From: a phage
DNA length: 64,000 nt
Sequence record: PX246731.1
Reading direction: 5' to 3' (one strand)
In this document: positions 8,897-13,968 of the stretch, one piece after another
Layout of the letters: every line of letters begins with the position of its first letter
Position numbering within the stretch: position 1 is the stretch's first letter
Program-made: the position numbers and the translations under genes
The notes under the pieces: model-generated
What the model saw: the letters and a program-made list of their open reading frames with translations, nothing else
Databases searched by the model: none
Told to the model about the DNA's origin: nothing

Positions 8897-9078
8897 AACT
8901 TACTCAGTCCCAAGCAATCTTCCTTCGCATGGTTCAAGGTGGTTCTGCCACTAGTAACCGTAATAACAAAACCGCACAGTCTCTTAAGAAGCTGGGCTTA
9001 GTACAGTTCAATGCTGGTCTTGGGTGGTCATTAACCCCTACCGGAGTACTGCAACTCAACGAGATGAAAGGTAACTAA
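8893..9078 (+). CDS. hypothetical protein (61 aa)
   Basis: ORF with overlapping start. Confidence 0.45.
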   Translation: MKLTQSQAIFLRMVQGGSATSNRNNKTAQSLKKLGLVQFNAGLGWSLTPTGVLQLNEMKGN

Positions 9079-9408
9079 ATGAAAACTTTACTTAAAGGTA
9101 TTGCAGTAGCTGCACTGATAGCTTTGGCTCCAAATGCACAAGCAATTGAGCCAGAACCAATTCTGGAAGGTGCTCAGGCTTATCTGGATGACACTCGCGA
9201 TGCGTTCGGACAAGGATTCTTCATGGGCAGTATGATCTCTTACATCGAGAGCACAAATAACTGTGTTCCGGATGGTATGAAGTATTCCGACATTCTACCT
9301 AAGATTGCCAAAGTAGTTATTTATGATTCTGCAATCCTCAAATTGAAGAATACATCTCAAATTGTCGTGTACTCCGTACACAAGGCATATCCCTGCACTA
9401 AATCTTAA
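9079..9408 (+). CDS. secreted/periplasmic protein with signal peptide (109 aa)
   Basis: N-terminal MKTLLKGIAVAALIALAPNAQA signal-peptide-like sequence. Confidence 0.5.
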   Translation: MKTLLKGIAVAALIALAPNAQAIEPEPILEGAQAYLDDTRDAFGQGFFMGSMISYIESTNNCVPDGMKYSDILPKIAKVVIYDSAILKLKNTSQIVVYSVHKAYPCTKS

Positions 9409-9442
9409 TCAGTAATCCCATTAGCTTTAGGAGAGTAAGTAA

Positions 9443-12243
9443 ATGGCAAGCATCGACTCCTTGACTGTATGTAATTCACGTCAAGCTCGTAACTTTATTA
9501 TCCGTGCCCTGAAAGCAGGTAACGTACCGTTCCTGACTTCATCACCTGGCATGGGTAAATCTGCAATCATTCGTTCTATTGCAGAAGAATTTGGTATGAA
9601 GTTAATTGACCACCGTCTATCTACTTCTGCCCCGGAAGACCTGTCTGGCTTACCTTTCCGTAATGGTGACCGTGCAGAGTTTATTCCATTCGCTGACTTA
9701 TTCCCCATTGAGGGAGACGAAGTACCAGAAGGCTATAATGGCTGGCTCTTATTCCTTAACTGACGGGGCTTCATGAGAGCAATCTCATGTCGAAAGTTAC
9801 CTAAACAGGGAACCTCTTCTAATATGGTTGGCTCAGGTGTATACTTGAGTTTTAATCAATTGGAGACAATCCTGTGCTAAATAATGAAATTTGGAAAGAT
9901 GTGCCCGACTTACCGTATGAAGTTTCCAACTTTGGTGTAGTACGCCGAAAAGAAGGAAAGTATAAATACAAAAATAGGACACATATAAAACCGTATCTTA
10001 ATAACAAAGGGTACTACTGCGTGAACCTGTACATGAATAGTAAAGTGTACAAATATCAAGTTCATCGTCTGGTAGGCATAGCCTTTGTACCAAACCCCAA
10101 TAACTATCCAGTTATTAATCATATAGATGGAAACCCTCTTAATAACCACGAGAGTAACCTGGAATGGTGTACCCAGTCCCAAAATATTAAACATGCTTGG
10201 GATACTGGATTATTGTCAAACAGACATGCCAACGCTAGTAACAAAAATCGTGGAGGCTCCTCCAAATACGTAGGTGTATCCTGGAGTGAGCAAAGACAAA
10301 GATGGTGTGCCCATATAAGGGTTAACAAGAAATCTATTGGTTTGGGACGTTACAAAACAGAGGAAGAGGCTGCCAAAGCCTATGACTCCTACGTAACTAA
10401 CAACAATCTTACACAGATTGGGTACAGTACCAATTTCATTTAAACGCCAAACGACTATCGAAAACACACAGAAATGTGGAAGTGAGTAGAGTAGGGTGCA
10501 AGCCAATGGCACTCGAAACGGTAACAGCCCTAGCAATAGGGCTTTGATATAGTCTCCTCTGCATGGTGACATGCAGCAGTCAGTATTCACTGAGTGTACT
10601 GACGGCATTAGTAGTTGCGAACTAATGTGAAGATAATGCGACGAGTTCAACTCAGCTAAGAAAGAAGTAGTAGCTGCTGCATACAAGCTGATTCTCGACC
10701 GTATGACTGGTCAGAAAAAGCTTCATCCTAACGTGATGATTGTCTGTGCTGGTAACAAAGCTACCGACCGTGCCATTGTTAACCCATTGGGTACTGCAAT
10801 GCAGTCTCGTGTGGTTCACTTTGAAATGGAACTTAACTTCGACATCTTTGTTGAAGACGTAATGATTCCTCAGCAATGGGATGAACGTCTGGTTGCATTC
10901 TTACATGCTAACCCAGGTTACCTGCATGACTTCGACCCAGCACACAAGAACAAAACGTTCTGTTGCCCACGTAAACACACTGCGATTCAGGGGAGTAATT
11001 CCCTGTCTAAAGCTGCCTAAAACGGGAAACACTTTACATTCTGTTGCCTAAAGGTAATATGTAAAAGTCAATCCGTTACTAAATTGGGAGTCAGCATGAG
11101 TGAGATTTGGAAAGATGTTGTTGAATTTGAAGGTTTATACCAAGTATCTAATACAGGTAAATACCGTAAGCATGAGTCACGCCAATCTGTAAATAAGTAC
11201 AGAGAAGTTAAGCCCCTTATCAGGGCACTTAACAAGAACCGATTAGGTTATCTGTATGCCTCTATGTACAAAGATGGGAAGACTCATAAGAAAACTATTC
11301 ATCAACTCGTTTGTGCAGCATTTAAACCAGGCTTTAAGTATGGTGATCCTGTTAACCACTTAGATGGTAATAAGGAGAATAACCATGAAGACAACCTGGA
11401 ACCATGCACCGCACAAGACAATAATCTCCATGCTCATAAAACTGGGCTAGCCCCTAAACCAGGTAAGTCTGTGTACCACAATGTGCACATACGTCGTAGT
11501 AAGTATAAAGATAAAATTTACACTTATTACGAAGCCAAGGTTAAAGATAATTACAAGGTAGTATTCTACAAACAGTTTAAAGATGAGGTAGCTGCTGCTA
11601 AAGCCGTAGATGCCTATCTGGACTCAATTGGGGATACTAGACGTAAACGTAATTTCTGACTTCCATAAATGTCCAACGACTATCCCGGGGAGGGAGTAGA
11701 GCATAAGCCAATGATGCTCGAAATGGTAGCCACCCTACAGGTAATGCTAAGGGTGTTGATATAGTCTAGTCTGCATGGTGACATGCAGCAGTTCATAAGA
11801 GAACGGGCGTAGTCTTGCGAACTACGTCGAATATCACGACCTGGGACTTTGTTAATAAAGACCTCAAGAACCTACCGGAAGGTGCTCTGCCTGATGAGGA
11901 TTCTATCTACTATGCAGGACACGTTACTGCTGGTAAGGCTACAGAGTTTGTTCAGTTTACACAGGTGTACAATCGTATCATTACGATTGAGAAAGTAGTC
12001 AAAGACCCACTGGGCTGTGCACTACCGGAAGATAACAACCTGTGCTGGGCTACTGTTAACCATCTGGCTAACAAAACTACTGAAGAGAACTTCGCTGATG
12101 TTCTTCAGTACATTGAACGCTTTAAAACGTTCACCCATAAGATTCTGTACTTCCGTACAGTAGGCAATGCATTACCAGATCTTCAGGCTACCCCTGAATG
12201 GCGTAAGGCTGCTGCTAATATCTCTCGCTATATTCACGGATAA
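9443..12243 (+). CDS. AAA+ ATPase (MoxR/AAA_5-like) split into three exons by two group I introns; predicted exons 9443-9756, 10639-10972, 11839-12243 (351 aa after splicing)
   Basis: Walker A SSPGMGKS in exon 1; joining exon 1 to exon 2 recreates Walker B LLFLDEF; all three exon frames are continuous and sum to 1053 nt; splice points approximate. Confidence 0.6.
9757..10638 (+). mobile_element. group I intron 1 (approximate ends) carrying an HNH homing endonuclease ORF
   Basis: Contains sequences matching group I core elements as recalled: P-like CCTAAACAGGGAA, R-like CAACGACTATC, S-like TGATATAGTC; intron ends in G and the 5-prime exon ends in U under the proposed junction. Confidence 0.55.
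9874..10443 (+). CDS. HNH homing endonuclease with C-terminal AP2-like DNA-binding domain (intron-encoded)
   Basis: HNH-type His/Asn motif (HRLVGIAF...NHIDGNPLNNHESNLEW) and AP2-like YVGVSWS...RWCAHI...GRYKTEEEAAKAYD; GTG start with GGAGA RBS. Confidence 0.7.
   Translation: MLNNEIWKDVPDLPYEVSNFGVVRRKEGKYKYKNRTHIKPYLNNKGYYCVNLYMNSKVYKYQVHRLVGIAFVPNPNNYPVINHIDGNPLNNHESNLEWCTQSQNIKHAWDTGLLSNRHANASNKNRGGSSKYVGVSWSEQRQRWCAHIRVNKKSIGLGRYKTEEEAAKAYDSYVTNNNLTQIGYSTNFI
10973..11838 (+). mobile_element. group I intron 2 (approximate ends) carrying an HNH homing endonuclease ORF
   Basis: Shares P-like GCCTAAAACGGGAAAC, R-like CCAACGACTATC and S-like TGATATAGTC plus the 3-prime TTGCGAACTA block with intron 1. 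Confidence 0.55.
11096..11659 (+). CDS. HNH homing endonuclease with AP2-like domain (intron-encoded, paralogue of 9874-10443)
   Basis: N-terminal SEIWKDV...EGLY motif shared with the first endonuclease, HNH core and AP2-like C-terminus; ATG with GGGAG RBS. Confidence 0.7.
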   Translation: MSEIWKDVVEFEGLYQVSNTGKYRKHESRQSVNKYREVKPLIRALNKNRLGYLYASMYKDGKTHKKTIHQLVCAAFKPGFKYGDPVNHLDGNKENNHEDNLEPCTAQDNNLHAHKTGLAPKPGKSVYHNVHIRRSKYKDKIYTYYEAKVKDNYKVVFYKQFKDEVAAAKAVDAYLDSIGDTRRKRNF

Positions 12244-12250
12244 TCACAAC

Positions 12251-13426
12251 ATGAACCAATTTCCTCAGCACACACTTAGTGATGAACAACTCATGCGTGA
12301 GTATGACCGTATTCAGGCTCAGGCCTTCCTGGGCAAGTCTGCTGCGTTCTTTGGTTCATTGCTGTGTAGTCTTAAGTTCTCATGGAAACGTGAGGATTGC
12401 CCCACTGCATGTACTGATGGGATAGAACTCCATTTCAACCCAGACTTCTTTATCTGGATGTGTCCAGATGCAAGAGAAACAGTATTAATGCATGAACTAT
12501 GGCATGTAGCATATCTACATGACATCCGTCGTGGAAGCCGTGACCCGGAAATCTGGAACCAGGCTTGTGACCACTTCATTAACCTTCAGTTAGAAGAAGA
12601 TGGTTACAAGTTCACTGGCATTGACAAAGGCATTTGCAAAGACCCTCAATATAAAGGATGGGTCGAAGAAGACATCTACGATGACCTGATGAAGAACCCT
12701 CAGAAAAGGCAGAAGCCGTCAGGGGGTGCTGGAGCAGGTCTTGCTGGCGACATGAAATCCCCCACTTCGGGGCAGTCCCAGGGTGCTGTTGTCAACAACG
12801 TAGTACGTGCAATGCAGAGCCAAAAGATGGCTGGTGGAACAATGCCCGGTAAGGGTGCTGGTCGTATGGAAGAGGTTATTACCCAATTCCTTAAACCAGT
12901 GGTTCCATGGCAGGAAGTTCTCATGAACTTCTTTACCGACATTGATGACACACATTATACGTGGGCCAGACCTAACCGTCGTTACACTGACATCTATCTA
13001 CCTTCACTGGAAGATGATGAAGGTCGTTTACGCCACTTAGCCTACTTTGAGGATGTGTCTGGTTCTATTAGTAGTGCTGACTCTCTGCGTTTTAACTCAG
13101 AGGTCGCCTATGTTAAGAGCCAGTTTAATCCTAAGAAGATGACCCTAATTACCTTCGACGATACTATTCAAGAAGAGATAGACATCACTGAAGAAGATAC
13201 TTTTGAAGAGATTAAGATTACTGGTCGTGGTGGTACAAACCTGGAACCAGTACGCGAGTGGATTATTAAGAATAAGCCAACCGCTGCAATCATATTCTCC
13301 GATATGTATGTTCGCCCAATGGAAGAATTGCCATTTGATATCCCTATCATCTGGTGTGTTCTGAATAATCCTAATGCTACCGTACCTTTTGGGGAGGTAG
13401 TTCATATCCCTAAAGGAATGAAATAA
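12251..13426 (+). CDS. vWA-like protein with metallopeptidase-like HExxH domain (DUF2201-like), partner of the AAA ATPase
   Basis: MHELWHVAYLH motif; Gly-rich linker; sits directly after a MoxR-like ATPase; start reassigned to ATG 12251. Confidence 0.55.
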   Translation: MNQFPQHTLSDEQLMREYDRIQAQAFLGKSAAFFGSLLCSLKFSWKREDCPTACTDGIELHFNPDFFIWMCPDARETVLMHELWHVAYLHDIRRGSRDPEIWNQACDHFINLQLEEDGYKFTGIDKGICKDPQYKGWVEEDIYDDLMKNPQKRQKPSGGAGAGLAGDMKSPTSGQSQGAVVNNVVRAMQSQKMAGGTMPGKGAGRMEEVITQFLKPVVPWQEVLMNFFTDIDDTHYTWARPNRRYTDIYLPSLEDDEGRLRHLAYFEDVSGSISSADSLRFNSEVAYVKSQFNPKKMTLITFDDTIQEEIDITEEDTFEEIKITGRGGTNLEPVREWIIKNKPTAAIIFSDMYVRPMEELPFDIPIIWCVLNNPNATVPFGEVVHIPKGMK

Positions 13427-13968
13427 TGGAAACACCCATAAAAACCTGTCGCAAGTGTTTGCAGGAGTTCCCGGCTACGCTTGAGTTCTTTTACAAGAAC
13501 GCTGGTGGCAAATATGGGGTAACTCCACGGTGCAAATCATGTGTTAATGAGGATAATGCAGCCGGGCATGCAAAACGTTTGGCTGCTAATCCAGAAAAGA
13601 TACGTGCTCAAGCTGCTGCCCGTAGTAAAAAACATTATTACAAAGATTTGGAACAATCGCGTGAACGACAGTGTATAGCTCAAAAGAAAGCGAGAAATGA
13701 TCCCGTAAGGGGAGAACGTATTAAAGCACGTAAACGTGCAAATGGTGCTGGGCTAACACCGGAAGAGATACAACAACTCCTCATTAGTCAAGGAGGCGTG
13801 TGTGCTATCTGTGGTGATCCACCTACCGATTTAGACCATTGCCATAAAACAGGTAAAGTTAGATTTCTACTATGTAAGCATTGCAATAGAGGACTGGGTG
13901 CTTTTAAAGATAAGCCAGAACTAATGCGAAAAGCTGCACAACTACTGGAAGACTTCAATGATAATTAA
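13426..13968 (+). CDS. HNH endonuclease, endonuclease VII-type (free-standing)
   Basis: CRKC...CKSC and CAICG...DHCHKTGKVRFLLCKHCN Cys/His clusters typical of Endo VII/HNH. Confidence 0.65.
   Translation: METPIKTCRKCLQEFPATLEFFYKNAGGKYGVTPRCKSCVNEDNAAGHAKRLAANPEKIRAQAAARSKKHYYKDLEQSRERQCIAQKKARNDPVRGERIKARKRANGAGLTPEEIQQLLISQGGVCAICGDPPTDLDHCHKTGKVRFLLCKHCNRGLGAFKDKPELMRKAAQLLEDFNDN

Follow-up and report, generated by a model that had tools for sequence, protein, structure and literature searches.

Group I introns that bear HNH endonuclease genes are known from T4, SPO1, Twort, T7-like phages and cyanophages (PMC2988022, PMC3428280), and endonucleases of the HNH-AP2 type are common among phages (PMC2248197). 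In N4-like phages of Vibrio, an HNH gene was described that splits the gp24 homologue and might sit in an intron (Fouts et al. 2013; PMC3670811), and a group I intron has been reported in the td gene of an N4-like Vibrio phage (PMC5746245). A search of the literature returned no paper on introns in the gp24 gene of Gamaleyavirus. Here, the gp24-type ATPase gene located on the plus strand at positions 9443-12243 of the phage sequence record PX246731.1 (a stretch of 64,000 nucleotides (nt), hereafter the window) is analysed. We hold it highly probable that this gene contains two mobile introns of group I, subgroup IA2, independent of each other and both related to the td intron of T4, a reading supported by their anatomy and boundaries, by covariation, by the homologies of the proteins and by the signature that transfer has left in the population.

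The td intron, an IA2 intron that encodes I-TevI, has the same ribozyme architecture as both inserts of the window, together with the same junction sequences (J3/4 UAA, J6/7 CNAAC and the UAAAU/UAAAU loop). The block formed by J8/7, P7' and P9 (GATATAGTCT..TCTGCATGGTGACATGCAGC) is nearly identical in the window introns, P7.1 and P7.2 are also placed between P7 and P3', and the open reading frame (ORF) lies likewise in a loop closed by P6a. In contrast, the cores of the window introns are merely ~55-60% identical to that of td, the interrupted gene encodes thymidylate synthase in T4 and an ATPase here, and the endonuclease is of the GIY-YIG type in td and NUMOD4-HNH(-AP2) in the window. Unlike in td, no internal late promoter or operator was identified in the window introns. 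A further described IA2 intron, that of Pf-WMP3, has an ORF that begins in P6a and UAA at its 5' end (PMC3428280).

With regard to the enzymes, the window ORFs have counterparts of the same kind in phage group I introns whose HNH endonucleases are of the I-HmuI type; those enzymes are proven nickases with mapped cut sites, whereas the window ORFs encode predicted ones, and the host genes differ. The DNA-binding modules of I-HmuI-type enzymes may also differ from the AP2 domain of the window ORF. With regard to the host gene, the same gp24-type gene is interrupted in Klebsiella phage Pylas, Pseudoalteromonas phage pYD6-A and the Vibrio phages JA1/VchO139-I, by introns of the same td-like family with homologous NUMOD4-HNH ORFs; the record of Pylas reads 'ATPase split by intron' and that of pYD6-A gives a joined coding sequence (CDS). 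Each of these phages has a single intron, whereas the window and phage NAN33P5 have two. Phage genes with several introns include orf142 and nrdE of Staphylococcus phage Twort and bnrdE/F of Bacillus SPbeta, in which the introns occur with or without an HNH ORF, but hosts, genes and intron subgroups are other than those of the window. Annotations of intron-split gp24 genes exist already for other N4-like phages, and the locus described here presents neither a new element type nor a new mechanism.

The phage source of the window is a Gamaleyavirus, that is, an N4-like coliphage of the Schitoviridae. Positions 9000-12700 matched 103 phage records, nearly all of them from Gamaleyavirus and with NAN33P5 as the top match, and the gene is labelled in the matching records as 'ATPase, similar to gp24 of phage N4'. 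What is interrupted is thus the counterpart of gp24 of N4, which encodes an AAA+ ATPase.

The first-pass annotation had read three ORF fragments (9443-9763, 10703-11020 and 11815-12243) as pieces of this one gene. All three are present, and joining 9443-9756, 10639-10972 and 11839-12243 yields a frame of 1053 nt, or 351 codons including the stop (350 plus stop), in which the Walker B motif LLFLDEF is restored. Exon 1 (9443-9756), equivalent to nt 1-314 of the uninterrupted gene of phage ECBP1, encodes the SPGMGKS of Walker A and, with LLFL, the first half of Walker B; exon 2 (10639-10972), based on the ECBP1 blocks, opens with the DEF of Walker B; and exon 3 (11839-12243) opens with TWDF and ends with the stop codon at 12241-12243. 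The pieces removed correspond to 9757-10638 (882 nt) and 10973-11838 (866 nt). The comparison with uninterrupted homologues proposed by the same annotation bore out the joined gene, as positions 1-1053 aligned in one ungapped piece in 53 of 59 Gamaleyavirus records.

The 1053-nt ECBP1 gene falls on the window as 9443-9757, 10640-10973 and 11839-12243, and both junctions are ambiguous by a slide of 1 nt. Only the combination of 9756/10639 with 10972/11839, the one given in the first-pass annotation, gives a U at position -1, a G at the 3' end of the intron and UAA(C) at its 5' end, as in related introns. The homologous intron of pYD6-A, with an unambiguous junction, likewise begins with UAAC and also requires the placement at 9756|10639 and 10972|11839.

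At the protein level, 344 of the 350 residues of the spliced product are identical to those of ECBP1. The codon differences between the two genes (21 in exon 1, 19 in exon 2 and 28 in exon 3) are synonymous in 62 cases and nonsynonymous in only 6, all of the latter in exon 3 (21:0 for exon 1), and by this measure all three exons are under purifying selection. Within the unspliced sequence, the frame of exon 1 meets a stop 2 codons inside intron 1 and that of exon 2 meets one 15 codons inside intron 2, neither exon 2 nor exon 3 has a start codon or ribosome-binding site at its junction, and intron 1 bisects Walker B between LLFL and DEF. The gene has thus been kept as one protein, with a 62:6 ratio despite the stops and the split Walker B, and for this both inserts must be excised precisely from the RNA.

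As an alternative, the inserts could be free-standing HNH cassettes, with the ATPase either made in three separately translated pieces, which would perhaps reassemble, or dead. This would agree with the GenBank/RefSeq entries of U1G, pSb-1 and PW8, where the alleles appear as separate 'ATPase' fragments and an 'HNH endonuclease', with the free-standing HNH gene that Bp4 has beside its ATPase gene, and with the sub-threshold Rfam scores given below. However, such cassettes would fit neither the 62:6 ratio of the exons nor the bisected Walker B, nor would they fit exons 2 and 3 that lack a start codon and a ribosome-binding site where they are joined; moreover, the inserts obey exactly the rule of U at -1 and a 3'-terminal G, and ~300 nt of non-coding sequence in each of them form a complete td-like ribozyme with covariation. 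We consider this alternative very improbable. Inteins and group II introns also occur in phage genes with HNH-type nucleases, but as readings of the inserts they have a practically negligible probability and are refuted by the sequence itself. An intein was rejected on the stops that the exon frames meet inside the inserts, after 2 and 15 codons, and on the stop codons that keep either ORF from being continuous with the flanking exons, and a group II intron on the finding of no group II family and no reverse transcriptase domain, the core being made of the group I elements P, Q, R and S.

The group I elements follow the same order in both introns. The core starts with P1, P2 (7 bp with a GNRA loop), J2/3, P3, J3/4 (UAA), P4, P5 (+P5a), P4' and P6, and continues through the UAAAU/UAAAU internal loop, P6a, which closes the ORF loop, J6/7 (CNAAC), P7 (GACUAU), P7.1, (A)GUA and P7.2; then come GAAA, P3', P8, UUGAU, P7' (AUAGUC), P9 (CUGCAUG-GUGA-CAUGCAG), P9.1, P9.2 and a tail of 11-12 nt that ends in G. 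In intron 1 (9757-10638), the helices were located at 9753-9756/9765-9768 (P1), 9772-9789 (P2), 9796-9801/10520-10525 (P3), 9805-9810/9870-9875 (P4), 9815-9819/9862-9866 (P5), 9876-9877/10446-10447 (P6), 9883-9891/10432-10440 (P6a), 10453-10458/10549-10554 (P7), 10465-10478 (P7.1), 10494-10514 (P7.2), 10526-10543 (P8), 10559-10576 (P9), 10579-10603 (P9.1) and 10606-10627 (P9.2). The corresponding positions in intron 2 (10973-11838) were 10970-10973/10981-10984 (P1), 10988-11005 (P2), 11012-11017/11725-11730 (P3), 11021-11026/11072-11077 (P4), 11031-11035/11064-11068 (P5), 11078-11079/11671-11672 (P6), 11085-11094/11656-11665 (P6a), 11678-11683/11761-11766 (P7), 11684-11694 (P7.1), 11699-11719 (P7.2), 11731-11755 (P8), 11771-11788 (P9), 11791-11804 (P9.1) and 11808-11826 (P9.2). 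The U·G pairs of P1 are U9756-G9765 and U10972-G10982, and the terminal (omega) guanosines are G10638 and G11838, with the boundaries set by the intronless alleles.

The shared core elements noticed in the first-pass annotation were recovered as described: the R (ACGACTAT) and S (GATATAGTC) elements occur each exactly twice in the 64-kb window, one copy per intron, and both introns contain the common 3' block (TTGCGAACTA followed by 14 nt with a final G), where it corresponds to the loop of P9.2, its 3' strand and the 3' tail. A 34-nt block made of S and P9 occurs twice in the window, with 0 occurrences expected by chance. A check by script found 14 helices in the right order and with full complementarity in both window introns and in those of U1G, pSb-1, pYD6-A and td. 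In Pylas, the helices were found through P9.1, the complementarity of P9.2 was seen by eye only, and the strands of P6a are unequal in length (bulged). The P7.1/P7.2 region reads CCC GGGGA GGG - AGUA - GAGCAU...AUGCUC in intron 2 and CACA...UGUG - ...GAGUA - GGGUGC...GCACUC in intron 1. As P7.1 and P7.2 joined by G-U-A define subgroup IA2 (PMC3428280), both inserts are, by their predicted folds, IA2 group I introns and relatives of T4 td.

The fold was further supported by covariation. Seven introns were aligned with MAFFT with no structural input, and 39 pairs in P2, P3, P4, P6, P7, P8 and P9 were scored. Bases were paired in 98.9% of the cells, as compared with 25-44% in slid controls, changes on both sides of the pair were seen in 20 of the 39 pairs, and none of 500 shuffles was as good. 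Compensatory changes were found in P3, P4, P6, P8 and P9, with P7 invariant. Minimum free energy (MFE) folds of the introns after deletion of their ORFs recovered P2, P3, P4, P5, P6a, P7.1, P7.2, P8, P9, P9.1 and P9.2, the long-range pairings of P3 and P4 among them, with MFE z-scores of -5.2 and -4.3.

The first-pass annotation had assigned an HNH-AP2 ORF to each intron, a claim that stands fully for the first and in part for the second. ORF1 (9874-10443, plus strand; 189 amino acids, GTG start) is a predicted NUMOD4-HNH_3-AP2 homing endonuclease in which the three Pfam domains pass their cut-offs, with 40.1 bits for AP2 (PF00847; cut-off 33.3), 38.9 for NUMOD4 and 33.3 for HNH_3 (PF13392; cut-off 24.8), and it also matches plant AP2/ERF domains in the PDB. 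ORF2 (11096-11659, plus strand; 187 amino acids from the ATG at 11096) is a predicted NUMOD4-HNH_3 homing endonuclease (35.8 and 26.8 bits, both above the cut-offs) with a divergent C-terminus; its start is most likely this ATG, which has GGGAG 5 nt upstream, rather than the TTG at 11084. The C-terminus of ORF2 aligns with the AP2 region of ORF1 and is probably a divergent AP2-like tail. In both ORFs, the HNH (His-Me finger) catalytic motif lies towards the N-terminus. The two ORFs are 34% identical over 184 amino acids (E 3e-26), align from end to end with those in the introns of pSb-1, pYD6-A and Pylas, of which only that of pSb-1 has a (weak) match to AP2, and have I-HmuI (1U3E) as their best match in the PDB (E 2e-12 for ORF1 and 3e-10 for ORF2). 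By homology, both are I-HmuI-like HNH endonucleases.

Both ORFs sit in the P6a loops of their introns, and their translation signals overlap with the ribozyme. In ORF1, the Shine-Dalgarno sequence GGAG (9862-9865) belongs to the 3' strand of P5, the GTG start overlaps with P4'/P6, and the stop codon is in the internal loop between P6a and P6. In ORF2, the Shine-Dalgarno sequence GGGAG (11086-11090) is in the 5' strand of a 10-bp P6a and the stop codon in its 3' strand. In T4, the expression of I-TevI as well as of I-TevII and I-TevIII is restricted by the sequestration of their ribosome-binding sites in RNA structure (PMC2988022), an arrangement that the window ORFs would share.

Several results weigh against the assignment as two complete, mobile IA2 introns. 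P1 is short, of 4 bp in both introns, and in intron 2 just 3 bp involve the exon; a search by eye of both introns for P10, between the guide region and the 3' exons, found none convincing. The percentage of paired cells is partly circular as a measure, the helices having been first defined by eye against td. An AP2 domain in ORF2 was detected neither by Pfam at E<=10 nor by search of the PDB at E<=10. Finally, a scan of the whole window at the Rfam gathering level gave no match, and at a relaxed threshold RF00028, the sole meaningful Rfam family matching the introns, gave intron 2 a score of 32.6 bits (E 6e-6) and intron 1 one of 18.9 bits, both below its gathering threshold of 50 bits.

The match to a group I model expected in the first-pass annotation was thus obtained for both introns, although below the gathering score, as also occurs with a known intron. 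When run with the same tool, the self-splicing T4 td intron scored 40.3 bits and the T4 nrdB intron was missed entirely, and the related introns of U1G, pSb-1, pYD6-A and Pylas scored 22-27 bits. The gathering threshold is uninformative for ORF-bearing IA2 introns, because T4 td itself falls short of it.

No third intron or paralogue was found in the window by scans for the R and S motifs and by tblastn with both HNH ORFs, and at E<=0.01 Rfam identified intron 2 alone over the whole window. Scans of IMG/VR for the exact pattern of the P1-P2 region of each intron gave 0 matches and no additional carriers. When the 3' cores (P7-P9.2) of introns 1 and 2 were used, matches of 70-82% were observed in 154 and 540 phage records, respectively, spanning Vibrio, KIL-like Pseudomonas (in the terminase), Campylobacter, Bacillus, T7-like Yersinia/Pectobacterium and Acinetobacter phages and rV5-like coliphages. 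Judged by such matches, the td-like IA2 core is spread very widely among phages.

The distribution of the introns among close relatives is patchy. The gene is uninterrupted in 53 of the 59 Gamaleyavirus records, and the remainder correspond to four phages: U1G, with two records, carries intron 1 alone, pSb-1, also with two, and PW8 carry a related intron at a third site, within codon 67, and NAN33P5 is the only one of the 59 records with both introns. The sites occupied in the window and NAN33P5 are codon 105, between its second and third bases, and the boundary 215/216. Among phages of other subfamilies, the related intron of Pylas is inserted at codon 119/120, and that of pYD6-A lies between P214 and R215, 3 nt upstream of the site of intron 2 (R215|T216).

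The introns of the window and NAN33P5 differ at 0 of 882 positions (100% identity) and 7 of 866 positions (99.2%), whereas the exons differ at 27 of 314, 31 of 334 and 34 of 405 (~91% identity). The exon differences reach within 3-7 nt of every junction, and the contrast between introns and exons is highly significant (Fisher P 4e-32). A similar contrast was found between pSb-1 and PW8 (98.7% for the intron and 91.7% for the exons) and a weaker one between U1G and the window (95.4% against 91.5%). Near-identical introns within diverged exons indicate recent horizontal transfer or homing. The first-pass annotation had left a choice between homing and duplication; recent homing is favoured by the comparison with NAN33P5, and a recent duplication of one intron within the gene was ruled out, since the cores of introns 1 and 2 are only ~60% identical and their ORFs 34%. 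The nearest relatives of intron 2 are the introns of Pylas and pYD6-A, and that of intron 1 is the intron of pSb-1.

Two side observations concern these relatives. The codon-67 intron of Shigella phage pSb-1 (L003 944-1814) and Escherichia phage PW8 (L016 201-1068) is td-like and has a NUMOD4-HNH-(weak AP2) ORF; its P7.1-P7.2 is nearly identical to that of intron 1 and its P8 is like that of intron 2, a pattern that suggests mosaic introns. The intron of pYD6-A (L006 1915-2754) and its ORF are among the nearest relatives of 10973-11838, and this HNH ORF is labelled 'ATPase' in RefSeq.

It might be argued that the inserts are group I introns by descent in which self-splicing was lost in one or both, or the endonuclease is inactive, so that they would be decaying relics that need host or phage factors or are tolerated because gp24 is dispensable. 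The short P1, the missing P10 and the undetectable AP2 of ORF2 can be read in this sense, and T4 I-TevIII is a known case of a defective intron endonuclease, according to the T4 annotation. However, all the core helices are intact in both introns, both ORFs are of full length and align throughout with four homologues, and purifying selection is still acting on the exons. Furthermore, the 99-100% identity of the introns between phages whose exons differ by 9% requires a recent transfer. Decay of this kind is consequently regarded as improbable, and two mobile introns are preferred.

Splicing, the activity of the endonucleases and its regulation are predicted from the sequence. The transcript of each intron would fold into a P1-P9.2 ribozyme and excise itself through a two-step reaction initiated by guanosine, in which cleavage after U9756 or U10972 would be followed by ligation of the exons after G10638 or G11838. 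The expected product is an mRNA for a single ATPase of 350 amino acids with an intact Walker B. In mixed infections, the endonuclease would cleave or nick the allele that lacks the intron, close to the site of insertion, and repair would copy the intron into it. The ribosome-binding sites would be buried in P5/P4' (ORF1) and in P6a (ORF2), and because they lie in helices of the ribozyme, an RNA whose endonuclease gene is being translated is unlikely to fold into the ribozyme, and the reverse, as in T4.

The flanks of the insertion sites bear on the homing process. At 10639, the first base of exon 2 and a synonymous position (CTC, Leu), all three carriers of intron 1 have C, and each of the nine non-carriers examined has T or G; this C could possibly reflect a minimal co-conversion tract, a requirement of splicing or an effect of the target site. 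On the 3' side of site B, C at +1 and C at +4 are shared with NAN33P5, but by +7 the window has the type of the intronless PD38, and therefore any co-conversion tract would be of 6 nt at most. I-HmuI nicks at 3 nt from the insertion site (PMC3428280), a distance that, by analogy, would fit such a tract.

At least five insertion positions are occupied in this 1-kb gene (within codon 67, within codon 105, 119/120, 214/215 and 215/216), and within the NUMOD4-HNH-AP2 lineage the ORFs of the relatives are 37-39% identical to that of intron 1. A further reading, which we regard as less likely than not, is that the gp24 ATPase gene of N4-like phages might be a homing hot spot for one radiating lineage of td-like IA2 introns, whose recent transfers between phages ~9% diverged leave almost no co-conversion tract (at most 6 nt). 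If true, this would imply a nick-initiated, nearly scarless homing, and the gene would provide a natural series for how HNH-AP2 enzymes are retargeted.

Regarding the ATPase itself, the spliced protein passes the Pfam cut-off of PF00004 (AAA; 27.2 bits, cut-off 21.2), falls below that of AAA_5 (17.4 bits, cut-off 22) and has the AAA domain of midasin as its top match in the PDB (E 4e-4). Its membership of AAA+ is sound, and the label 'MoxR-like' given in the first-pass annotation is plausible; a gene for a VWA-like protein lies directly downstream. The spliced protein corresponds end to end to the ATPase family phrog_1297 (residues 4-349, E 1e-133). In addition, residues 1-67 match phrog_21479, a profile of 68 amino acids that corresponds to exon 1 of a split allele of the pSb-1 type, and residues 1-187 match phrog_16335. 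Both matches end close to intron sites, which suggests that fragment families in PHROGs were seeded by intron-split annotations.

The downstream partner gene (12251-13426, plus strand), outside the introns, is the homologue of N4 gp25 and encodes a DUF2201 putative metallopeptidase with a VWA-like domain (PF13203, E 1.5e-56; PF09967, E 3e-35). Homologues of gp25 are named 'HNH endonuclease' in RefSeq (Pylas gp37, U1G gp29/gp30 and Bp4 orf66), in what looks like a misannotation. The next ORF (13426-13968; 180 amino acids), whose ATG overlaps the preceding stop, has a recombination endonuclease VII domain (PF02945, E 7e-19). In Bp4 (L004 1796-2310; also in Uz-1 and PD38, by span), an insert of ~515 nt between the ATPase gene and the gp25 homologue encodes a free-standing 'HNH endonuclease' ORF. 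The ATPase match of Bp4 measures 1052 nt instead of 1053, and its annotation divides it into two CDSs, pointing to a frameshift or to a mistake in the sequencing.

The proper annotation of the locus is a single joined CDS for an ATPase of 350 amino acids, in place of the fragments given in the GenBank records of U1G, pSb-1 and PW8. The window adds a twin-intron allele to the known group I introns of phages and, together with its relatives, presents a single small ATPase gene struck at several sites by one intron/endonuclease lineage. The finding of identical introns in diverged exons provides clean evidence of ongoing intron traffic in coliphages used for therapy and typing.

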